From NCBI GenBank assembly GCA_902492015.1, contig CABUJR010000006.1, positions 50,421 to 114,420 of the forward strand: a stretch of 64,000 bases of DNA, read 5' to 3'. The notes under the pieces are model-generated. The model was not told the origin of the DNA. It ran no database searches and worked only from the letters and a program-made list of their open reading frames with translations. This stretch comes from an uncultured Eubacteriales bacterium. GTDB lineage: Bacteria; Bacillota; Clostridia; TANB77; CAG-508. This document shows positions 2,760 through 60,361 of the stretch, one piece after another (position 1 is the stretch's first letter; every line of letters starts with the position of its first letter). The position numbers and the translations under genes were made by a program.

Positions 2760-3974
2760 ATGACAGATATAATAAAAGAACTTGAAGAAAGAGGATATAT
2801 TGAACAATTAACACATGAAGAAGAAATAAGAAAATTGTTTCAAAAAGAAAGTGTTAGTTTTTACATAGGAATTGACCCAACAGCAAATAGTATGCATATT
2901 GGACATTTTGTGGCATTAATGGTAGCTTCTAGATTACAAAAAGCTGGACACAAACCAATTATATTAATGGGTGGAGGAACAGCAACAATAGGAGATCCAT
3001 CAGGCAGAACAGATATGAGACAAATGCTTACAAGAGAACAATTAGATTCAAATGTTGAAGCAATAAAAAAACAAGCAGAAAGATTTGTTTCTTTTGAAGG
3101 AGAAAATGCAGCAATTATAGTTAATAATGCAGACTGGTTATTAGATTTAAAATACATAGATTTTATGAGAGAAATAGGATCTCATTTTACAGTAAGCAAA
3201 ATGCTTGCTCAAGAATGCTATAAAACAAGACTAGAAACAGGTTTAACATTTTTTGAAATGGGGTACTTATTATTACAAAGTTATGACTTCTTATATTTAC
3301 ATGATAAATATAATTGTAAGTTACAAATTGGTGGAAATGACCAATGGTCTAATATAATCGGCGGTGTTGAATTAATTAGAAAAATTGGTGCAGAAGATTC
3401 TTATGGATTAACATTTAAACTTCTTACAACAGCTGAAGGTAAGAAGATGGGTAAAACAGCAAAAGGTGCTTTATGGTTAAATCCAGAAAAAACTTCACCT
3501 TATGAATTTTATCAATATTGGAGAAATATTGGAGATACAGAGGTTGAAAAAGTACTAAGTTTACTAACTTTTTTACCAATGGATGAAGTAAAAAGATTAT
3601 CTTCATTAAAAGATGAAAAAATAAATGAAGCTAAAAAAATTGCTGCCTATGAAATTACAAAATTAATTCATGGTGAAGAAGAAGCTAAAAAAGCAGAAGA
3701 AGCTGCTGAAGCTTTATTTGGAAATGGTGGAAATATAGATAATATGCCTTCAACAAAATTAGAAAATATTAATATTTCAATATTAGATGCAATAATAACT
3801 GTTGGTATGGCTCCATCAAAAGGACAAGCAAAAACTTTAATTTCACAAGGTGGGATTACTTTAAATGATAATAAAGTAGAAGATATTTCATATATATTAA
3901 GTGAAACAGACTTTAAAGATGGATATGCTATTTTGAAAAAAGGTAAAAAGGTATTTCATAAATTAGAAAAATAG
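2760..3974 (+). CDS. tyrS: Tyrosyl-tRNA synthetase
   Basis: HIGH motif (SMHIGHFVAL), KMSKS-like KMGKT, and a C-terminal S4-like domain. RBS aggagga. Confidence 0.93.
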   Translation: MTDIIKELEERGYIEQLTHEEEIRKLFQKESVSFYIGIDPTANSMHIGHFVALMVASRLQKAGHKPIILMGGGTATIGDPSGRTDMRQMLTREQLDSNVEAIKKQAERFVSFEGENAAIIVNNADWLLDLKYIDFMREIGSHFTVSKMLAQECYKTRLETGLTFFEMGYLLLQSYDFLYLHDKYNCKLQIGGNDQWSNIIGGVELIRKIGAEDSYGLTFKLLTTAEGKKMGKTAKGALWLNPEKTSPYEFYQYWRNIGDTEVEKVLSLLTFLPMDEVKRLSSLKDEKINEAKKIAAYEITKLIHGEEEAKKAEEAAEALFGNGGNIDNMPSTKLENINISILDAIITVGMAPSKGQAKTLISQGGITLNDNKVEDISYILSETDFKDGYAILKKGKKVFHKLEK

Positions 3975-4354: not shown

Positions 4355-5728
4355 ATGAAGCTAAGAACAAGGATGTACCTACGGAAAAGACTAAATGAAG
4401 TCAAACACACAACTTTAAACCCAAACGGGCCAGGTGTTGTTCGGATTCATTTGGTGCCACCGAAAGCTGGCAAAGAAGATGCACCAGCAGTAGTAATTAT
4501 TAACGGAAGGGATTTGCTGCCTATTAAACCTTCGTGGAGTTTACTTTTGGCAGAATTCATAACGCAAATAAACTACTATGCTGGAAAATCTCTTTCAGAG
4601 GATGACCTTCGCACAATAAGAGATAACACTTTTGTGCAGGTAACGAAGGTTTTCAGGAAAGTGGATCGCGACCTGTTAAGAGATGACCTGAAATCACTGA
4701 TGGACACGTTATGTAAGATTGCATACGGAGAAGAAGTGGACGAAGACATTCCATATATGTCTATCGGTGAATATGCATCCTACATGAGTGCTCCGCACAG
4801 AATTGATTTAATGATAAGCAGTATGACCAAATCTGGAAAATGGCATTGTAACCAGAGATGTGTTAACTGCTATGCAGCAGGTCAGACTGAAGCGGAAGTC
4901 AATGAACTTTCTACAGAAGAGTGGAAGAAAATCATTGACAAATGCAGAGCCGCATATATACCACAAATTACATTTACCGGTGGAGAACCAACAATGAGAA
5001 ATGACTTGGTAGAACTTATTGACTATTCTCAATGGTTTGTAACCAGGTTAAATACCAATGGTATTCTCCTCTCAAAGGAGCTTTGTAAGCAACTTTATGA
5101 GGCGAGCTTGGATAGTGTACAAATAACTCTATACTCATCTGACGAAGCCGAGCATGAGGCACTTACCGGTAGTTGCGGTACCTTTAAACACACAGTACAA
5201 GGAATAAAAAATGCCATAGAGGCAGGACTGAATGTGAGTATTAATACTCCGCTGTGTAAAGGAAACTCAGATTATGTAAAAACACTCAAGTTTTTGCATA
5301 GCTTGGGAGTAACTTATGTTTCTTGTTCTGGTATTATTTTTACTGGAAATGCGAGAAGCAAGACTGCAAAGGAAAAGCAACTGACAGAAGATGAGCTTTT
5401 CAAGATTCTTAAAGAAGCGACAGCATATTGCTGGCAAAATGATATGGAGATTGCATTTACATCTCCTGGGCAAGTTTCAGAAGAAAAACTTGAACAGCTC
5501 GATCTATCTCTTCCCACATGTGGTGCTTGCCTTAGTAATATGGCTATCGCACCAAATGGCAATGTTGTTCCATGTCAGAGCTGGTTAAATGGCAATTCTG
5601 TATTAGGAAACATGCTGTCTGATCCGTGGAAGAGAATTTGGAATTCCCCTAAAGCCTTAAGTATCAGGGAGTTTTCTGCTCGGATGGAGCATACATGCCC
5701 ATTAAAGACAGTAAAGGAGGACAAATAA
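4355..5728 (+). CDS. Radical SAM enzyme with SPASM/twitch-like C-terminal Cys-rich domain and ~160-aa N-terminal (RRE-like?) extension
   Basis: CNQRCVNCYAAGQ (CX3CX2C) at about aa 165. Later Cys clusters CKGNSDY, SCSG, CGAC...PC, HTCP. Strong RBS aaggaggaacgagt-ATG. About 43% GC against a 27% background. Confidence 0.85.
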   Translation: MKLRTRMYLRKRLNEVKHTTLNPNGPGVVRIHLVPPKAGKEDAPAVVIINGRDLLPIKPSWSLLLAEFITQINYYAGKSLSEDDLRTIRDNTFVQVTKVFRKVDRDLLRDDLKSLMDTLCKIAYGEEVDEDIPYMSIGEYASYMSAPHRIDLMISSMTKSGKWHCNQRCVNCYAAGQTEAEVNELSTEEWKKIIDKCRAAYIPQITFTGGEPTMRNDLVELIDYSQWFVTRLNTNGILLSKELCKQLYEASLDSVQITLYSSDEAEHEALTGSCGTFKHTVQGIKNAIEAGLNVSINTPLCKGNSDYVKTLKFLHSLGVTYVSCSGIIFTGNARSKTAKEKQLTEDELFKILKEATAYCWQNDMEIAFTSPGQVSEEKLEQLDLSLPTCGACLSNMAIAPNGNVVPCQSWLNGNSVLGNMLSDPWKRIWNSPKALSIREFSARMEHTCPLKTVKEDK

Positions 5729-5729
5729 T

Positions 5730-6689
5730 ATGAAAGCAAAAACAATGGTAACACGGATAATTATTGTTTTGGCTGTTATTTTCACTTTACTGCCAATAAC
5801 AGTATATGCCAAAGAACCCCTGGATGAAATCCAGGACTACACAGTAACAGTTGACCTTAGACCTGATGGAACAGCAGATATCAAGTATCATCTGGAATGG
5901 AAGGTACTTGATGACAGTTCAGAAGGCCCTTTGGAATGGGTAAAAATAGGTATTGCAAATGAGAATGTTGATGAAATTACAGCATTAACAAGCAATATAA
6001 GCAAGATCAAATATTACCCAGAGGGATCAGATGATTATGTTCGCATAGATTTTGATAGAAAATACTATGCGGGGGAAGTCATAAATTTTGATTTCTCACT
6101 TCATCAGAGTCATTTGTACGTAATGGATAAAGAAGAGCATCTGCTCAGATATTCTTTTACACCGGGCTGGTTTCCTGAAATTGAGGTAAAAAATATCACT
6201 ATCAAATGGAATAAAAATAATGTGATTAAAACCTCAGCAGAACAAGAAGATAGCAATGGATATTATGTTTGGAATGGAAGCTTAAGCTTTGATGAAAGGC
6301 TTAATGCATCTGTTTCTTATAATCTGGATGCTTATGCTGCTACTGAAGAAGGTCAGGCTCAAGAAAAGGAAGAAGATGGAATACCAACGATTTTGGTAAT
6401 AATTCTTATTGTACTAATTGTTATATTGGTAATAGTAGTTCTTGTAGCTATCTTTTCAAACGATGATGATTATGGTTCTGGTAGAGGTTATGGAGGAGGC
6501 TCTCATTATAGGAGCACATATATCCATACACATCATTCTTCTTGCGTAAGTAGCTGTGCTTGCGTGCATTGTGCATGTGCATGTGCATGCGCAGGCGGTG
6601 GAAGAGCAGGATGTAGCAAGAAAGACTTCTACGGTACTAATCTTAAGAAAGACATGATGGATAAGGTTCTAAGCGAAGAGCTGGACTAG
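5730..6689 (+). CDS. DUF2207-like single-pass membrane protein with cytoplasmic Cys/Gly-rich tail (putative rSAM substrate)
   Basis: Signal peptide, about 190-aa ectodomain (IQDYTVTVDLRPDGTADIKYHLEWKV), TM helix IPTILVIILIVLIVILVIVVLVAIF, and tail ...GGGSHYRSTYIHTHHSSCVSSCACVHCACACACAGGGRAGC. Start is 2 nt after the rSAM stop, with RBS aaggagg. Confidence 0.6.
   Translation: MKAKTMVTRIIIVLAVIFTLLPITVYAKEPLDEIQDYTVTVDLRPDGTADIKYHLEWKVLDDSSEGPLEWVKIGIANENVDEITALTSNISKIKYYPEGSDDYVRIDFDRKYYAGEVINFDFSLHQSHLYVMDKEEHLLRYSFTPGWFPEIEVKNITIKWNKNNVIKTSAEQEDSNGYYVWNGSLSFDERLNASVSYNLDAYAATEEGQAQEKEEDGIPTILVIILIVLIVILVIVVLVAIFSNDDDYGSGRGYGGGSHYRSTYIHTHHSSCVSSCACVHCACACACAGGGRAGCSKKDFYGTNLKKDMMDKVLSEELD
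6570..6593 (+). repeat. (TGYGCA)4 hexanucleotide microsatellite encoding the CACACACA tract
   Basis: tgtgca tgtgca tgtgca tgcgca, in frame as Cys-Ala repeats. Confidence 0.8.
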
Positions 6690-45112: not shown

Positions 45113-46114
45113 ATGATAGAACCAGACGAAAATCCAGAGTTTGTAAATGATTTTTTAGCATATAGTTTAACAATATTAAATAAATCTCAAAATTCAGTTA
45201 AAGAATACAACTATGATATTGCACATTTCTTGAAATTTATTAAATTTAAGTATAAATTAACAGATGTTAAAGATGAAGAATTTATTAAAATAATAAAAAT
45301 AAATGATTTTGATTTAGATACTTTAAAAAGAGTAACTTTACAGGATATTCATGCATTTTTGCAATATTTAAAAATATGTTATCAAAGTAAACCAGCAACT
45401 CTTGCTAGAAAAGCTTCTACTATACGAATATTTTTTAAATATATGTGTAATAAAACTAAAAAAATTCCAACAAATCCTGCACAAGATTTAGAAACTCCTA
45501 AAATCGGGCAAAGATTACCTAAATATCTTACATTAGAACAAAGTAAAGAATTATTGGAAACAGCAGCTAAACCAAACGCTTCTCATGGTAATCATGATAA
45601 TACAGAAAGAAATTTTGCAATGATAACATTGCTTTTAAATTGTGGTTTGCGTTTATCGGAACTTATAGGAATAAATATTAGTGATATAGATTTTGAAAAT
45701 AATAAACTTAATGTTATAGGAAAAGGTAATAAAGAAAGAACGATTTATTTAAATAATGCTTGTATAAAAGCAATTAATTCCTATTTGGCTGTTAGACAAA
45801 ATGATAGAGTAAAATTTAATTCAAAAGATGCATTGTTTTTAAGTGAACAAAACAAAAGAATAAGCAGAAGAACAGTTCAGTATATTATAAAACAAGAATT
45901 AAAACTTGCAGGAATTGAAAAAGCAGATAAATATTCTGTACATAAATTAAGACACACAGCAGCAACATTGATGTATAAATATGGAAATGTAGATATTAGA
46001 GCTTTACAAGAATTGTTAGGGCATGAATCTATTTCTACTACTCAAATTTATACTCATGTAGATAACGAACAAATAAGGAGTGCTGTTGAAAACAATCCAT
46101 TAGCAGATATGTAA
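45113..46114 (+). CDS. Tyrosine recombinase, XerC/XerD family
   Basis: R...HxxR...Y catalytic region (LRHTAATLMYKYG...LLGHESISTTQIYTHV). Confidence 0.8.
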   Translation: MIEPDENPEFVNDFLAYSLTILNKSQNSVKEYNYDIAHFLKFIKFKYKLTDVKDEEFIKIIKINDFDLDTLKRVTLQDIHAFLQYLKICYQSKPATLARKASTIRIFFKYMCNKTKKIPTNPAQDLETPKIGQRLPKYLTLEQSKELLETAAKPNASHGNHDNTERNFAMITLLLNCGLRLSELIGINISDIDFENNKLNVIGKGNKERTIYLNNACIKAINSYLAVRQNDRVKFNSKDALFLSEQNKRISRRTVQYIIKQELKLAGIEKADKYSVHKLRHTAATLMYKYGNVDIRALQELLGHESISTTQIYTHVDNEQIRSAVENNPLADM

Positions 46115-46194
46115 TTATAGAGAGAAAATAAAAAATATATTCTCTAAAAATTTAGCATTGTTTTAGAAAAATAGTAATTAAAAAGTGAAATGAA

Positions 46195-46611
46195 ATGTTG
46201 AACATAGAATACATAGAAAATGCGAATAAAGAAATTTACAAAATAATAGATGAAGAATTTAATAAATTTGCTACTAAAAATGAAGTTATTTGTAATTATA
46301 AGCCATTTTCTTTTATTGCTAAAGAAAATAATAAAATTGTTGGAATTATAACAGGAAATTCATATTATAAAGAAATTTATATATCTGATTTAATTGTATT
46401 GGAAGAGTATAGAAATAAACATATTGGAAGTAAACTAATAGAAAAAGTTGAAAATTACTTTAGAAATAAAGAATTTGAAAATATAAATTTAACTACTTAT
46501 GCTTTTCAAGCTCCTGAATTTTACCAAAAGTGTGGCTATAAAATAGAATTCGTCAGAAGAAATAAAGAAAATCCAAAACTTGATAAATATTATTTAATTA
46601 AATATTTTTAA
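46195..46611 (+). CDS. GNAT family N-acetyltransferase
   Basis: 138 aa; motif A region RNKHIGSKLIEKVE. Confidence 0.7.
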   Translation: MLNIEYIENANKEIYKIIDEEFNKFATKNEVICNYKPFSFIAKENNKIVGIITGNSYYKEIYISDLIVLEEYRNKHIGSKLIEKVENYFRNKEFENINLTTYAFQAPEFYQKCGYKIEFVRRNKENPKLDKYYLIKYF

Positions 46612-46799
46612 TAATATAAAAATAGTATGTTTTTAGAACATGTAATTTTATTATTTATATAAAAGAGGTAGAGTAGGGGGAATAGTACATTTTTAATATA
46701 TAAAAAATATGAAAATATATTAAAAAATTTTGTGCAATCTCTTAAAAAATTTTTTTAATAATTTAGTAAAAAGAAATTTTAAGAACTAAAATTAATTTA

Positions 46800-46869
46800 C
46801 AGAATTTTATAGAATATAATTTTTAAATTTTACAAAATTTTATAGAATATAATTTTTAAATTTTACAAA
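46800..46869. repeat. 35-bp tandem direct repeat x2 (AATTTTATAGAATATAATTTTTAAATTTTACAAA)
   Basis: Two adjacent near-identical copies. Degenerate copies of AAATTTTATAGAAT at 46927 and inverted at 47120. Confidence 0.8.
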
Positions 46870-48049
46870 TAATTAATAATTTTAAAATTATAATTTCATA
46901 ATATCAAAAAGCGAACATTTGTTGTTTTGTAAATTTTATAGAATTTATATAATATTCTAATTAAAAATTATCGTTTTGTTAAATTTAAAATCGATTTTAA
47001 GCAATTTTAATTATTGAATAATAAAATTAATCGTTATTATATAAAATTTGATTTTAATGAATTATATTTTTAGATTTATATAAATTCAAATTGCATAATT
47101 AAATTTTATATTTTGTCTAATTCTATAAATTTATATAACAATTACAATAACTGTATTACAATATAAAATTATACAAAATAATGACCTTCTAAAATCAAAT
47201 TTAAGCTGTTTTTATTTTTAGGTCGACAAATTACTTGTTTGAAAATTAAAGCTAAATAGTGATTTTAGAAAATCATATTAAAAATGTAGATTTTTATAAA
47301 GAAATCATGGATATATATAAATATACAAAAAAAGCCTAAAAAGTGCTAAAAATACGACGCACGAGAATCGATTTTAAGGCGTTTTTAAAAATTAGCCATA
47401 TAGTTTGTTGTCTATAAAATACGGCAAATATAGAGAATTAGTCATTTTTGAGATTTTTGAAAAAATATAAATATAAATTCAATATATAAATATGAAAATT
47501 ATAATTAGAAAAAATTATAGATATAAATTTAAATTCTAATAAATAAAAATAATATAGTAATGAAATTATATAAGTAAAACAAAAAATGTTTTAAAATTGA
47601 TTTTAGCAAATCATATAAATATTATAGTAATAATTAGTAATGAATATGAAATAAAAATATAATAATAAAATAAAGTTATATAAATGAATATTAGTATATA
47701 ATAAACAGCTAAAAGCCTTGAAATAACAGAAGTATAGGTTTATAGTTGTTTTATATATTAGTCCTACTCCTTTTTGCACAAAACTTTGATTTTGCGCAAT
47801 GTTATATATAATAAAAATACCTTCAAAATTGTTTTAACCCTCTATTCTCCGCTTATTATATAGAATAAATATTAATATTTTTTATAATAAAATAAAATTA
47901 CTTTTTAATTTTATTTGTTTCATTTTATTTTACCTAAAATTCCTAATGTAAATTAAACACCTCTACTTTCCCTATTTGTTATTTGTATAACTTTGCATAT
48001 ATTTAATAATTATATATTCTCATTTTATATTTTACTAATTTTTAACAAA

Positions 48050-48086
48050 AAGCCCCAAGTCAGTATGACTCAGGGCTTTTTGCAGT
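48050..48086. terminator. Bidirectional terminator downstream of ftsH
   Basis: gccccaagtcagtatgactcagggc hairpin flanked by A/T runs. Confidence 0.7.
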
Positions 48087-48098
48087 TTATAGGGTGAT

Positions 48099-49949
48099 TT
48101 ACTTAACGGTATTACCTACCGAAGCATTTTTCTTATATTCTGTAAATAGTGAATCTAGCTCATCTCCCATTACTGTTTCTTGATCTAAAAGAAGTTTTGT
48201 AAGTGCTTTTGTGAGTTCCATATTTCCGTTGATAAGCTCTATCGCCTTCTTTTCAGACTCTTTAAGGATACTTGCCACTTTATTCCAGATTGCGTCAAGA
48301 GTATGTTGACCCAGATAATCGGTACTTGGTGCATCATCTCTAAATGATATAGGTCCTAACTCCTCGTCCATACCATACTGCATAACCATCCTTCGAGCTT
48401 TTTCTGTAGCAACTTCAAGATCGTTTGAAGCTCCTGTAGAGATATCTCCGATTAAGATTGATTCAGCAGCTCTACCAGCAAGCAAAACAATTAAACTTTC
48501 AGTAAATTCCTGTTTGCTGATATATTGTTTATCCTCTGTGCTTTCATGCATAGTGTATCCACCAGCAGTTCCTCTGGGAACGATTGATATTTCCTTTACA
48601 TTTGACTGCGTTGGAAGTAACTTGCCAACTATTGCGTGTCCTGATTCATGAACTGCAGTAATTTTTCTTTCTTTTTCTGAGATAATTCTTCCAGTTTTCT
48701 GAAGTCCTACTAATAATTTCTTTTGGGCTTCATCAATATCAGATTTATGAATAATCTCATGATTGTTCCTTGCAGCCATGAGAGCGGACTCATTAAGCAA
48801 ATTCTCAAGTTCTGCACCTGAATATCCCGCTGTGTTACACGCAATTCTATAGAAATCCACATCCTCGTAGAATTTCTTGTTTCTGGCATGCACGTGTAGA
48901 ATTTCCATTCTACCTTTTACATCAGGCAAATTCACAGTAACTTTTCTGTCGAATCTACCGGGCCTTACTAATGCAGGATCTAAGCTATCAAAGCGGTTGG
49001 TAGCACCAAGAATCACTATATCGGTTCTGTCCTTAAAGCCATCAAGTTCGATTAACAGCTGTTCGAGAGTTTGATTTCTCTCGTCATTGCTGTCTCCTCG
49101 TTTTGCTCCTATAGAATCAATTTCATCAATGAAAATGATACATGGAGCTTGCTTTCTGGCTTCTTTGAACAATCCTCTAATACGTTGAGCTCCAACTCCA
49201 ACATATTTTTCTACGAACTCTGAACCAGATACAGCAAGATATGCTACATCTGCTTCACCAGCCACAGCCTTTGCAAGTAATGTTTTACCAGTTCCAGGGT
49301 TTCCTGAAAGAAGTATTCCTCTAGGGATTTTTGCACCTAACTTTAAATATTTATCAGGATTTTTGATGAAGTCAACAACTTCCTCTAATTCTTTCTTTTC
49401 TTCGTCTAATGCTGCAACATCTGAGAACCGAACATCACTTTTGGTAAGTTTTTCCATAAAGTTAATGTCAGTATTTAGAACATTTGCAAAACTTAGAAAG
49501 TTAGAATTATCTGATTTTTTATTATTTCCTGTAAATTGTTTCGTTAGATATTTAAGCCCCATGATAAGAGCTGATCCCAAGTATACTGAAGCTACCAGAG
49601 TTAACAAGAAACCTAATATCAAATCACTAATGCTTGATTCTTCAGGTATTACTTCTAAATTTACAGGATTACCATAATAGATAATTTCATCCTGTATAAA
49701 ATTTAGAAAAACCTCCTCATTTGGAACTTCAGCCATTACTATTGTGTTATCAAGTAGTATTGCATTCACTAAGCTATCTCCCTCTTGTAGCTCAACAGAA
49801 GCAACTTTTTCTGATTCTATTAAGCTAATAAAGTCAGAGTATGACACGCTAACAGGCTTGGTTTTGGTTGGTGAATTTAAAAGCCGTACTCCTGCAAAGA
49901 TAAGAAGTGCGATTAAACCCATAAATGCTACAATTTTTAATTTTTTCAT
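48099..49949 (-). CDS. ftsH: ATP-dependent zinc metalloprotease FtsH
   Basis: Two TM helices, AAA Walker A GPPGTGKT, SRH, HESGH zinc motif. Confidence 0.92.
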   Translation of the reverse strand: MKKLKIVAFMGLIALLIFAGVRLLNSPTKTKPVSVSYSDFISLIESEKVASVELQEGDSLVNAILLDNTIVMAEVPNEEVFLNFIQDEIIYYGNPVNLEVIPEESSISDLILGFLLTLVASVYLGSALIMGLKYLTKQFTGNNKKSDNSNFLSFANVLNTDINFMEKLTKSDVRFSDVAALDEEKKELEEVVDFIKNPDKYLKLGAKIPRGILLSGNPGTGKTLLAKAVAGEADVAYLAVSGSEFVEKYVGVGAQRIRGLFKEARKQAPCIIFIDEIDSIGAKRGDSNDERNQTLEQLLIELDGFKDRTDIVILGATNRFDSLDPALVRPGRFDRKVTVNLPDVKGRMEILHVHARNKKFYEDVDFYRIACNTAGYSGAELENLLNESALMAARNNHEIIHKSDIDEAQKKLLVGLQKTGRIISEKERKITAVHESGHAIVGKLLPTQSNVKEISIVPRGTAGGYTMHESTEDKQYISKQEFTESLIVLLAGRAAESILIGDISTGASNDLEVATEKARRMVMQYGMDEELGPISFRDDAPSTDYLGQHTLDAIWNKVASILKESEKKAIELINGNMELTKALTKLLLDQETVMGDELDSLFTEYKKNASVGNTVK

Positions 49950-50160
49950 GAAAGTCTCTCCTTTTCTTTTCTTTATTGTAGTTCACATTGCAGCTATCAC
50001 CCTATAAAATTTTCAATGTGCTAACTTTCATATTATAACATAAATTTATGTAAATTACAATCTTATCTTCTTTATTAACTGACAATTTAATTTGCATAAG
50101 GCACTTATAATTTTGGTAATTGTGCTATATATATAAGTTTTGGATGATTTTATATTTTTA

Positions 50161-57565: not shown

Positions 57566-57764
57566 TTGTTGTACCTCTTTTTGTAATAGTAATAGTAAAT
57601 TTTAAATCTAAAAATTACTATGTAATATTCATAAATAATGTTATAAAAACTTTCTTATTAATAGTATATTACTAAAAAATTAAAAAGTGTTTTATTATAA
57701 ATATTTTATGAATTTCAAACATTATAACATATATTTTAATATAATACCATTTTTTATAAAAAAA

Positions 57765-57787
57765 ATATCTCTTTTATAAGAGATATT
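57765..57787. terminator. Terminator downstream of small Cys-rich ORF
   Basis: atatctctt-ttat-aagagatat hairpin flanked by A/T runs. Confidence 0.6.
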
Positions 57788-57795
57788 TTTAAAAA

Positions 57796-57930
57796 CTATT
57801 TTTTTGCATATTTTCCGCAATCACATTCATCATTGTATTTTTTATATCTGCCTGTTTTATCACAATCTGCTTTTGTAGTAGAGTGATTACCTTTCCAGTA
57901 ATAACAATATTGACACTCTTGAGTTGCCAT
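57796..57930 (-). CDS. Unannotated small cysteine-rich protein (44 aa: MATQECQYCYYWKGNHSTTKADCDKTGRYKKYNDECDCGKYAKK)
   Basis: Perfect RBS GGAGGTG 7 nt upstream of ATG. 5 Cys in CxxC / CxC arrangement. Has its own terminator. Below the 60-aa ORF-track cutoff. Confidence 0.6.
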   Translation of the reverse strand: MATQECQYCYYWKGNHSTTKADCDKTGRYKKYNDECDCGKYAKK

Positions 57931-58071
57931 ATTACTTCACCTCCGATTAGATTGTTCTTAATTAGGTTTAAATGGGCTTTTAATTTTTATGCTAATTTAA
58001 TACCAATTAAACTAAATTTAGAATTATTTCTAATAATTATTTTAACAGAAAAAACATAAAACGTCAACTTT

Positions 58072-58776
58072 CTATAAATCTTCACCTTTTAAAATAATTT
58101 CTGCATTATCATTTGATATTTTTTTAAACTCTTCTTCTGAAATAATTTTTTCAATCCTTTTTATTGCTTTTGGAATTTTAGGATATATACTGTTTTCTCT
58201 GTGAACATCTGATCCTAACAAAGATATTAAGTTTTCTTTAAACATTCTCTTTACAGTTTTTTTTGCTGCTCCTCCATATACTCCTAAAATACTACCATAA
58301 TTACTTTGAAAAATAACTCCTAATTCTTTAAGTTCATAAAGCAAATTAAAATTTTTATGAACTATACTATATCTTTCAGGATGAGCTAAAATTAATTTAT
58401 AATCATTATTTTTTAGGTTATTTAAAACATCCTTTAAATTTGGAAAATTAAGTCTTAAAGGCAATTCTATAAGTATGTAATTAGTTCCATTTATGGTAGA
58501 TGCTTTGTATTCTTTCAATAAATCTACTATATTATAAGTTAAAAATATTTCACTACCTAAAACAATATCTAAAGTTTCTTTTTCTTGTTTTAAATCCTCT
58601 ATTAATTTCTTTCTTTTGTATTCTGGGACTTCAAAACAATCTACAGCATAATGAGAAGTTGAAACTATTTTACTAAATCCGGCTTGTTTTGCTTCTATTA
58701 ATAGCCTTGTACTTTCATCATAATCTTTAGAGCCATCATCAATAGCTGGTAGTATATGAGAATGAAAATCAATCAT
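58072..58776 (-). CDS. Capsular polysaccharide tyrosine-protein phosphatase (CpsB/YwqE PHP family)
   Basis: MIDFHSHILPAIDDG N-terminal motif. Confidence 0.85.
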   Translation of the reverse strand: MIDFHSHILPAIDDGSKDYDESTRLLIEAKQAGFSKIVSTSHYAVDCFEVPEYKRKKLIEDLKQEKETLDIVLGSEIFLTYNIVDLLKEYKASTINGTNYILIELPLRLNFPNLKDVLNNLKNNDYKLILAHPERYSIVHKNFNLLYELKELGVIFQSNYGSILGVYGGAAKKTVKRMFKENLISLLGSDVHRENSIYPKIPKAIKRIEKIISEEEFKKISNDNAEIILKGEDL

Positions 58777-58793
58777 TTTTATTTTGTTTCCTT

Positions 58794-59522
58794 TTACTTT
58801 CTACGTTTTGGTTTAAAATTTGTTAATCTTTCACCATAATAATATGAATTTTCATAAGTTTTTGATGACATTTGAACTTTATTTAAAACAATTCCTGCTA
58901 CTTTTCCACCAACTTTTTCAATAGTGTCTCTAGCTTTTATTAAGTCCTCTTTTTTAGTAATATTTTGAGCAGAAACAATTATATTAAAGTCTACTAATCT
59001 TGATATAATTAGGGCATCAGCAACTATTAAGCAAGGTGGAGCATCAAAAATTATTACATCAAACTTATCCATTAATTTATCTTTTATTTTTTCCATTTTA
59101 GAAGATACTAATAATTCAGATGGATTTGGTGGAACACTTCCAGCTGCAATTAAATACAAATTATCTATATATGTTGCTTGTATATAGTTTTCTATATTAT
59201 CTTTATTACCTTTAAAATCTTGGTCAACAACACCTGATAAATAATTTGATAATCCTGGTCTTGGACGTAAATTGAATAATGTATATTGACGTCCTTTTCT
59301 CATATCTGTATCAATTATTAAAACTTTTTTATCTATTTGCGCAAATGCTGCTGCTAAATTTGCTGATACAAAGCTTTTTCCTTCACCAGGTACTGTACTT
59401 GTTACAACCATAACTTTTTTTTCAGAGTCTGCATTCATAAATTGAATATTTGTTCTTAAGTTTCTAAACATCTCTGCTTCAGGAGATTTTGGAGTTTCAT
59501 AAACTACGATTTCGCTTTTCAT
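58794..59522 (-). CDS. Capsular tyrosine-protein kinase (CpsD/Wze/YwqD)
   Basis: Walker A TSTVPGEGKS, BY-kinase; C-terminal Tyr cluster YYYGERL. Confidence 0.85.
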   Translation of the reverse strand: MKSEIVVYETPKSPEAEMFRNLRTNIQFMNADSEKKVMVVTSTVPGEGKSFVSANLAAAFAQIDKKVLIIDTDMRKGRQYTLFNLRPRPGLSNYLSGVVDQDFKGNKDNIENYIQATYIDNLYLIAAGSVPPNPSELLVSSKMEKIKDKLMDKFDVIIFDAPPCLIVADALIISRLVDFNIIVSAQNITKKEDLIKARDTIEKVGGKVAGIVLNKVQMSSKTYENSYYYGERLTNFKPKRRK

Positions 59523-60361
59523 TATCTCTTTCCTCCTTTTCTTTTTACATTTCTTCTAGATTGTGTTCTCCTTGAATCATCATTTTCATCTTTTCTAGTA
59601 CTAGATTCACGCTCTATATTTTTGAAATCTAATTCTGATAATTTTACATTTTTTGTATATTTTGATTTTTTCTTATAACTGTCATCAGTTAATGCAATAG
59701 AAGCTAGTACTGGTAAATTCAAAGCTTTTTCTATATCTATATCTGATTTTACAGTTGTGTCTAACATATTGATTAATAATATATAGGCAAATACTAATAT
59801 TGCTCCAACAAAAGCAAAAATTAAAACATTTTTTGATAAATGAATATTACATGGCTCTTGTGGTAATTGAGCTTCATCTAATATGTGAACATTTCTTATA
59901 TTATATAATCCCTCAACTTTATCAGCAAAAACTTTAGCAAATTCTGTTGCAATGTCATAAGCAAGTTTAGGATCTTCATTTGTAACTGTAACTCTAATTA
60001 ATTCAGTATCTGAAATAGAATTTACAGCTATGTTTTCTTGTATTTCTGATGTTGGAATATCAAGATGCAAATTTTCTTTTACTGTATCTGCGACAATTCT
60101 ACTTTTTGCAATTTCTCTATAATTTTCAACTAGCTTTGAGTTTATTGTTATATCTGTAGTTGAAATAGATGTTGTTGAATCTGTTGTAGCTTCTGTTCCT
60201 AATTGGACTAAAACTAAACTTATTGAAGCCTCATATTCTGGTACAATAAATTTTAAAGTGTAAATTGCTCCCATTATAGCAAAAATAATTATTACTAAAA
60301 TTATTAGTAATTTTTTTTCTAAAAACATTGATATTAGTTCTTTTAAATCTAGTTCTTCCAT
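59522..60361 (-). CDS. Chain-length determinant/BY-kinase activator (Wzz/CpsC/YwqC)
   Basis: Two TM helices flanking an extracytoplasmic domain. Overlaps the wze start. Confidence 0.75.
   Translation of the reverse strand: MEELDLKELISMFLEKKLLIILVIIIFAIMGAIYTLKFIVPEYEASISLVLVQLGTEATTDSTTSISTTDITINSKLVENYREIAKSRIVADTVKENLHLDIPTSEIQENIAVNSISDTELIRVTVTNEDPKLAYDIATEFAKVFADKVEGLYNIRNVHILDEAQLPQEPCNIHLSKNVLIFAFVGAILVFAYILLINMLDTTVKSDIDIEKALNLPVLASIALTDDSYKKKSKYTKNVKLSELDFKNIERESSTRKDENDDSRRTQSRRNVKRKGGKR

Follow-up and report, generated by a model that had tools for sequence, protein, structure and literature searches.

A 44-residue cysteine-rich mini-protein of uncultured gut Clostridia with a candidate four-cysteine metal site

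A short open reading frame (ORF) on the minus strand of a 64-kb stretch of DNA from an uncultured bacterium (the window, which here means this stretch at its full length) is a genuine protein-coding gene. Its product of 44 amino acids (aa), MATQECQYCYYWKGNHSTTKADCDKTGRYKKYNDECDCGKYAKK, is read here, on balance and with moderate confidence, as a stand-alone mini-protein of a previously undescribed family, in which four cysteines (Cys4) would hold Zn or Fe.

The reading frame had been picked out in an earlier note on this DNA, and both the sequence and the ORF list bear out its description: 44 codons that open with an ATG at 57930 and close with a TAG at 57798–57796 (Table 1). The product has a computed mass of 5.2 kDa, a GRAVY value of −1.5 and a pI of 8.6, and its composition includes 14% Tyr (6 of the 44 residues), 18% Lys and 11% Cys. 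Sequence computation found no signal peptide or hydrophobic segment; since the mini-protein is hydrophilic, mildly basic and devoid of a hydrophobic segment, it should be cytoplasmic. The exact window peptide is present on 523 contigs of public gene-call collections, where it appears as an unnamed gene call; the term uncharacterized is correct for it. The gene is chromosomal and single-copy in the window, and tblastn searches of phage and plasmid collections returned no copy of it.

Table 1. Positions of the small gene, its predicted expression signals and other features of the window discussed in the text
Feature	Position	Strand	Basis or remark
Coding sequence of the 44-aa Cys-rich mini-protein	57796..57930 (stop included)	−	ORF list and homologs
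Shine-Dalgarno sequence GGAGGTG	57938..57944	−	7 nt before ATG; sequence read
Predicted sigma-A-type promoter with extended −10	58039..58067	−	10/12 consensus matches plus TG
−35 element	58067–58062	−	
Extended −10 element	58047–58039	−	
5′ leader, about 90–100 nt	57945..58038	−	Comparison of upstream regions
Inverted repeat in the 5′ leader	58033–58018	−	
Intrinsic terminator, AU-rich hairpin and U-run	57758..57790	−	RNA fold; starts 6 nt past stop codon
Arms of the terminator stem	57790–57778 and 57773–57761	−	
Promoter of the aspartokinase gene, TGTTATAAT	57729–57721	−	
Palindrome upstream of aspartokinase	57594–57619	−	26–30 nt, AT-only
Wzz/CpsD/CpsB tyrosine-kinase module	58072–60361	−	
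Radical-SAM/SPASM gene	4355–5728	+	457 aa
Radical-SAM gene with adjoining DUF2207-like gene	4355–6689	+	

The start codon is preceded by the Shine-Dalgarno (SD) sequence GGAGGTG at the good spacing that had been claimed for it. This heptamer has only 5 copies in the window when both strands are counted, and it is identical at every homologous locus read. Further upstream, a predicted sigma-A-type promoter begins 5 nt past the cpsB stop codon and combines the −35 element TTGACG with a 17-nt spacer and the extended −10 element TGtTAAAAT. Placing the putative transcription start from this promoter sequence gives a 5′ leader ~60 nt longer than that of most relatives, the extra part being common only to locus L006 (Ca. 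Scatovivens faecipullorum); within this extra part, the inverted repeat TTAGAA-ATAA-TTCTAA is followed by the palindrome CTAAATTTAG. A scan of the region between 56 and 59 kb against Rfam (E ≤ 1) gave no match, that is, no riboswitch or known sRNA over the ORF, its leader or the aspartokinase leader.

Downstream of the stop codon, an intrinsic terminator is predicted to fold into a 13-bp stem with a 4-nt loop, followed by a run of eight U, at −11.9 kcal/mol (z = −3.2 relative to shuffled sequences); a consensus terminator scanner misses this hairpin because the stem has fewer than three G-C pairs. The terminator placed at 57765–57787 in the earlier note is therefore a real hairpin, if slightly larger than was given there, and its description as bidirectional is formally true (an A-run before it, a T-run after it) but irrelevant, the neighbouring genes all lying on the same strand. 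The claim of an independent transcription unit holds for the window, where the gene has its own promoter and its own terminator, and the gene is probably monocistronic and well expressed.

The same signals were recognized among relatives. The sequence TTGAC-N17-TGTTAAAAT lies upstream of the ORF at ~16 of 23 close loci and at the distant loci L026, L027, L033 and L036, the pattern among relatives being TTGAyn-N17-TG(T/A)TA(A/G)AAT, and a hairpin with a T-run lies 3′ of the ORF in most relatives, with hairpin sequences that differ between loci. The arrangement of promoter, ORF and terminator is kept in about two thirds of relatives, the most distant included, and promoter, full SD and terminator are kept even in members with just 39–55% identity. 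Given the presence of promoter and hairpin in most close loci and in distant members, the monocistronic sigma-A unit appears to be ancestral. In one subclade (L003, L014, L018, L019, L021, L023, L043 and L049), the ORF is positioned 19–47 nt behind cpsB without a promoter; among the subclade loci folded downstream, L003 and L043 retain a terminator and L014, L018, L019, L021 and L023 have none. Judged from this layout, the ORF became part of an operon with cpsB in the promoterless subclade.

Homologs were collected in several searches of increasing depth. A word-indexed search of 5.8 billion proteins identified 8 close relatives, a scan of 185,579 species-representative genomes identified 20 loci, and an exhaustive profile search with HMMER, run over 1.84 billion representatives, added the distant members (39–55% identity) and nothing beyond this small family; a second profile search and a metagenome scan brought the total to 46 distinct full-length homologs of 41–45 aa, all with the same start and stop. 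All homologs are stand-alone proteins (41–46 aa), the mini-protein never being a domain of a larger protein. Two candidates from the HMMER search, P0013 and P0015, were rejected as repeat or low-complexity artefacts. In two further sequences, P0010 (on a 62.9-kb contig) and P0007, the first 27–30 residues of the family, MASNECQYCYYWKGDYKTTKADCDKTG, are followed by divergence to DIKNIMTIV..., and by their sequences these two are frameshifted copies, either assembly errors or rare pseudogenes.

The earlier note had named in advance the outcome that would speak against a gene, namely conservation of the nucleotides and not of the ORF; it is the ORF itself that is conserved. Among the 23 close loci, the variable columns fall at 33 of 45 third codon positions, as compared with 14 first and 19 second positions, the pooled pN/pS amounts to 0.21, and corrected dN/dS has a median of 0.14. 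Since start, stop and SD are conserved, third positions vary most and the ratios lie at ~0.14–0.21, purifying selection acts on the protein itself. This selection, the invariant SD and the conserved ORF boundaries make it almost certain that the ORF is translated, as had been proposed. Peptide identity across the genus is 72–98%, on par with Rho and aspartokinase, and the flanking proteins are far less conserved (CpsB, 56–89%; Wzz, about 50–60%).

The named matches are metagenome-assembled genomes (MAGs) of Ca. Scatovivens or of "uncultured Clostridia/Clostridium", from gut samples of chicken, rabbit, mouse, roe deer and other hosts. In GTDB, Scatovivens belongs to order TANB77, family CAG-508 (PMC13106387). 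On the evidence of these searches, the family is restricted to one clade of uncultured gut Clostridia, which comprises Ca. Scatovivens and its relatives (GTDB TANB77/CAG-508).

In the window, the gene order is prfB, wzz, cpsD, cpsB, ORF, aspartokinase, yabP, yabQ, divIC and rho, with the Wzz/CpsD/CpsB tyrosine-kinase module seated between prfB and the small ORF. This module is absent in the distant relatives L026–L039 and variably complete among Scatovivens species (L013, L024, L025, L046 and L055); as the distant members carry the ORF between prfB and aspartokinase without cps genes, the module appears to be a later insertion. At three loci (L016, L057 and L064), the ORF is kept adjoining yabP in the absence of aspartokinase. 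A second context, found at L040, L041, L042, L045, L060 and L061, consists of an M18 aminopeptidase gene, a gene for a 38-aa rubredoxin (PF21349 and PF00301, both above cutoff), a gap of 30–46 nt, the ORF and a terminator; the rubredoxin–ORF pairing occurs on contigs with differing downstream genes, and the units were located at 3559–3840 of L040 and 4491–4788 of L045. By this layout, rubredoxin and ORF form an apparent operon closed by the terminator in one sub-lineage. At L040, the unit is followed by genes for a small RelA/SpoT-type alarmone synthetase and a response regulator. Taken over all loci, the context does not reveal a consistent functional partner, the neighbours being housekeeping genes inherited by synteny.

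A separate observation concerns the middle of the window. Near 47–49 kb, the GC skew and the AT skew flip sign and the gene orientation turns from plus to minus; the GC content is 17.7% in the very AT-rich 46–48 kb bin and 35.9% in the GC-rich 48–50 kb bin. The segment from about 46000 to 50000 could correspond to an origin or terminus of replication or to a cluster of RNA genes.

Comparison of the 46 distinct sequences identified six invariant residues (C6, C9, W12, C23, G27 and C38) and nine that are almost invariant (E5, Q7, Y10, K20, A21, K25, T26, Y32 and D34). Position 41 is aromatic in all members, and conservation is high for Tyr 10, 29 and 32; variation is greatest in the central loop 14–19. 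The five cysteines listed in the earlier note (CxxC, a lone C and CxC) are indeed present in the window peptide, but only four of them are invariant: C36 is missing in 6 of the 46 sequences, four of which have Ala in its place and two a deletion (L036, one of the latter, has an adjacent CC instead), and four members contain exactly the four cysteines C6, C9, C23 and C38. Because C36 is dispensable, the core is one of four cysteines, not five, and, as far as the sequence comparison indicates, the functional core is CxxC, 13–14 residues, C, 12–14 residues, C. Depending on the member, residue 5 or residue 6 is the first Cys, and C38 is isolated or lies within CxC or CC. At the second site, C23-x-x-T26-G27, Thr is present in 43 of the 46 sequences and Cys in one; C23-D-K-T-G resembles a rubredoxin-type knuckle with its second Cys replaced by Thr, and the natural variant L063 has the canonical CxxCG in this place (C-D-K-C-G).

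The most economical reading of four invariant cysteines among 44 residues in the cytoplasm of a strict anaerobe is one tetrahedral metal site. In the model proposed here, C6, C9, C23 and C38 would coordinate a single metal ion, Zn2+ or Fe, with C6 and C9 contributing a CxxC knuckle, C23 lying in the knuckle-like C-x-x-T-G turn and C38 completing the site. The metal would fold an otherwise unstructured 44-residue chain, and the folded peptide would show a surface rich in aromatic residues and Lys (Y10, Y/W11, W12, Y29, Y32, F/Y41, K20, K25, K30 and K40) that might bind a partner or transfer electrons. The mini-protein would act alone, neither as a precursor for post-translational modification nor as a leader peptide of aspartokinase. 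Metal binding, ligand identity and mode of action are inferred from sequence.

As in Cys4 mini-proteins, four strictly conserved candidate ligands were found in all 46 sequences, and in place of two CxxC (CPxCG-like) knuckles there is one canonical CxxC (C6, C9), so that the ligand spacing (CxxC, 13 residues, C, 12–14 residues, C) differs from that of the classical two-knuckle ribbon. The likeness to small Zn-ribbon proteins drawn in the earlier note is nevertheless plausible, as the four invariant Cys and the knuckle-like motif C-x-x-T/C-G agree with it. Searches of Pfam with 17 members (E ≤ 1) revealed no zinc-ribbon, rubredoxin, desulforedoxin or other metal-site profile; those of Pfam, NCBIfam and PHROGs returned only sub-threshold noise, such as conotoxin models; and sequence and profile searches of the PDB (E ≤ 10) matched no solved structure. 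AlphaFold2 reached a pLDDT of 47.9 with 9 sequences and 50.7 with 17, and the models are too poor for use. When literature and supplements, a 2026 multi-omics paper on gut smORFs among them, were searched for the signature motifs, no mention turned up. From its sequence, then, the mini-protein appears to resemble rubredoxin and zinc-finger micro-proteins in kind and to depart from both in sequence and in the make-up of its knuckles.

A sharper version of the metal-binding model would take the metal to be iron and the function to be electron transfer in place of partner binding. The mini-protein would then be a small redox protein of the Fe(Cys)4 or thiol-based type, a new electron carrier akin to rubredoxin or desulforedoxin, and would work with rubredoxin in the oxidative-stress defence of a strict anaerobe. 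The P0022/P0024 lineage, in which the ORF follows the 38-aa rubredoxin gene, favours this version, and the pairing fits a metal or redox role of the mini-protein. The CxxC (C-Q-Y-C-Y-Y-W) and the C-terminal C-G-K-F/Y both have aromatic residues beside them, as in rubredoxins. One member, P0025, carries an adjacent CC, as does desulforedoxin. Against this, the family has no profile similarity to rubredoxin, the pairing is confined to one sub-lineage, the mini-rubredoxin is absent from the window, and 43 of the 46 sequences have C-x-x-T-G in place of CxxCG as their second knuckle. Homology of the mini-protein to the adjoining 38-aa rubredoxin was rejected, the two being aligned by hhalign with a probability of 2.4%. 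The electron-carrier version is, on this evidence, unlikely.

The synteny with aspartokinase raises another possibility, in which the peptide would act in trans as a small regulator of an enzyme encoded next to it, or would be an accessory subunit of that enzyme, be it aspartokinase, the CpsD tyrosine kinase or the CpsB phosphatase; with its six Tyr, it might be a substrate or modulator of CpsD/CpsB. The synteny is long-range, a subclade has the ORF 22–47 nt behind cpsB and without a promoter of its own, and the conservation of Tyr 10, 29 and 32 points the same way. However, this synteny is seen within one organism family and spans unrelated housekeeping genes (prfB, yabP and rho), the cps genes, which distant members lack, were inserted later, and in three lineages aspartokinase does not adjoin the ORF; regulation of a neighbour therefore seems improbable. 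A more ambitious combination with the metal site, argued by analogy and still rather doubtful, would be a metal-folded micro-regulator of a specific protein, or else a new minimal Fe(Cys)4 redox class that operates with rubredoxin. Aspartokinase would be the most attractive target of such a regulator because the adjacency has been kept since before divergence to ~40% identity and because of the analogy with anti-TRAP (see below).

The ORF might instead be a leader peptide or regulatory upstream ORF, the translation of which, coupled to the terminator, would control read-through into aspartokinase. It does lie upstream of aspartokinase in nearly all lineages, distant ones included, it is rich in Lys and Thr, its terminator abuts the stop codon, and the aspartokinase leader contains no lysine riboswitch according to the Rfam scan. 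Yet selection acts on the amino acids (dN/dS 0.14–0.21, with invariant Cys, Trp and Gly), the ORF persists in the rubredoxin context and where aspartokinase is not adjoining (L016, L057 and L064), and the terminator is not conserved in sequence and is missing from five subclade loci. In addition, aspartokinase has its own promoter past the terminator, in relatives as well as in the window, and its own conserved leader palindrome. Protein-level selection, persistence without aspartokinase or cps genes, and separate promoters argue that the ORF is not a leader peptide, a role that we regard as highly improbable.

The leader palindrome of aspartokinase deserves description of its own. This AT-only sequence, AGTAATTTTTAGATTTAAAATTTACT, is located between the TGTTATAAT promoter of aspartokinase and its ribosome-binding site (RBS), AAAGAGGT, ~25–55 nt upstream of the ATG. 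The window contains it once, where 0 copies are expected by chance, and it was found at 19 loci, distant ones included, always upstream of aspartokinase and never in the ORF-only contexts. Some changes in its arms look compensatory (AATAA/TTATT in L013 and AGTAG/CTACT in L017), and Rfam contains no match to it. The palindrome may serve as an operator, or it may form an RNA hairpin in place of the usual lysine riboswitch. The idea that it links the ORF to aspartokinase was rejected, since it tracks aspartokinase and not the ORF.

The earlier note had also likened the peptide to precursors of the SCIFF/ranthipeptide type. On this account, the ORF would encode the precursor of a ribosomally synthesized and post-translationally modified peptide (RiPP) of the SCIFF, ranthipeptide or sactipeptide type, the cysteines of which are cross-linked in trans by a radical-SAM (rSAM)/SPASM maturase such as the one encoded in the window. 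The resemblance to SCIFF (TIGR03973) and the ranthipeptides extends to a length of ~45 aa, occurrence in Clostridia, several Cys, some of them adjoining Asp, Glu or Thr, and an "ECQ" motif, and the window does contain an rSAM/SPASM enzyme without an assigned family. The evidence from homologous loci runs against the idea. NCBIfam precursor models, SCIFF among them, gave 0 matches at E ≤ 10; the 312 kb flanking 45 loci contain neither a homolog of the window rSAM nor an ORF of at least 200 aa with CxxxCxxC; PF04055 is absent among the Pfam-listed neighbours; and the neighbour tables of homologous loci show no conserved peptidase or exporter, so that the check for a maturase, peptidase or exporter suggested in the note found none in any context. 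Conservation is uniform over residues 5–41, the span that also holds the cysteines, without the division into leader and core, whereas in SCIFF and ranthipeptides the Cys lie in a C-terminal core behind a leader. A RiPP precursor accordingly has very little to recommend it.

As for the suggested maturase, it is the sole rSAM gene of the window and scores below all NCBIfam family cutoffs. It lies 53 kb from the ORF in an island of 38% GC, as compared with ~25% elsewhere, and has a more obvious candidate substrate beside it: 2 nt downstream begins a gene for a 319-aa DUF2207-like membrane protein, which gives a weak YxzE-like bacteriocin match and the C-terminal tail of which, HHSSCVSSCACVHCACACACAGGG, is rich in Cys. 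This composition and this Cys-rich neighbour disfavour the proposal that the mini-protein is its trans substrate. By its sequence, the pair has the look of an acquired cassette, with the DUF2207-like tail as a possible substrate of the rSAM enzyme.

A Tyr/Lys/Cys-rich structural component of the spore coat, with a composition like that of CotC/CotU and with the sporulation genes yabP, yabQ and divIC among its neighbours, is scarcely credible, as the promoter, assigned by the consensus sequences of sigma-A, sigma-E and sigma-K, is of the sigma-A type (TTGAC, 17 nt, TGnTAAAAT) and not sigma-E or sigma-K, and the Cys positions are strictly fixed, unlike those of low-complexity coat proteins.

The favoured reading of a Cys4 mini-protein describes a solid new small-protein family, not a surprising mechanism. 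Pfam, NCBIfam, PHROGs and the PDB have no entry for the family, which is also unnamed in public sources. Its gene nevertheless bears the marks of importance, with a perfect SD behind a strong promoter, conservation at the level of Rho and retention through several local rearrangements, all in the reduced, very AT-rich genome of an uncultured yet frequently sampled gut lineage. A peptide of 44 residues can be synthesized and is experimentally tractable; its characterization would extend the small metal-site proteins by a new arrangement of ligands (CxxC, C, C) and provide a first functional handle on the biology of CAG-508. Should the micro-regulator or rubredoxin-partner reading be true, it would constitute a new functional family of bacterial micro-proteins.

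Among known systems, the zinc-binding small ribosomal proteins bL36, bL33 and bL32 also belong to the 40–60-aa class, are basic, combine a CxxC with further Cys or His ligands, and have a strong SD and promoter; the mini-protein differs in having no profile match to them and in the family pI of 7.6–8.6, which is far less basic, and, since its distribution does not extend beyond a single bacterial family, it is no core component of the ribosome. Like rubredoxin and desulforedoxin (PF00301, PF21349 and PF06397), it is very small, soluble and stand-alone, with four invariant Cys, a CxxC knuckle followed by aromatics, and a C-terminal Cys followed by G-K-F/Y, and it departs from them in the single-Cys second knuckle C-x-x-T-G and the lone fourth Cys 12–14 residues on. 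The zinc-finger micro-proteins HVO_2753 and HVO_0758 of Haloferax volcanii are one-domain proteins with canonical C(P)xCG pairs. They share with the mini-protein a length below 60 aa with little beyond the candidate metal site, a short gene of their own that is easily overlooked by annotation, and, as proposed for the mini-protein, a function that depends on partners; the mini-protein has one CxxC and two single Cys, is bacterial and is unrelated in sequence. Finally, anti-TRAP (RtpA) of Bacillus subtilis is a Zn(Cys)4 protein of 53 aa, which controls an amino-acid pathway through its binding to another protein. The mini-protein is likewise a tiny candidate Cys4 protein encoded near amino-acid biosynthesis genes and shares no sequence similarity with anti-TRAP, the DnaJ-type CxxCxGxG motifs being those of anti-TRAP; by analogy, anti-TRAP offers a possible model for how a metal-folded peptide of 44 residues might act.
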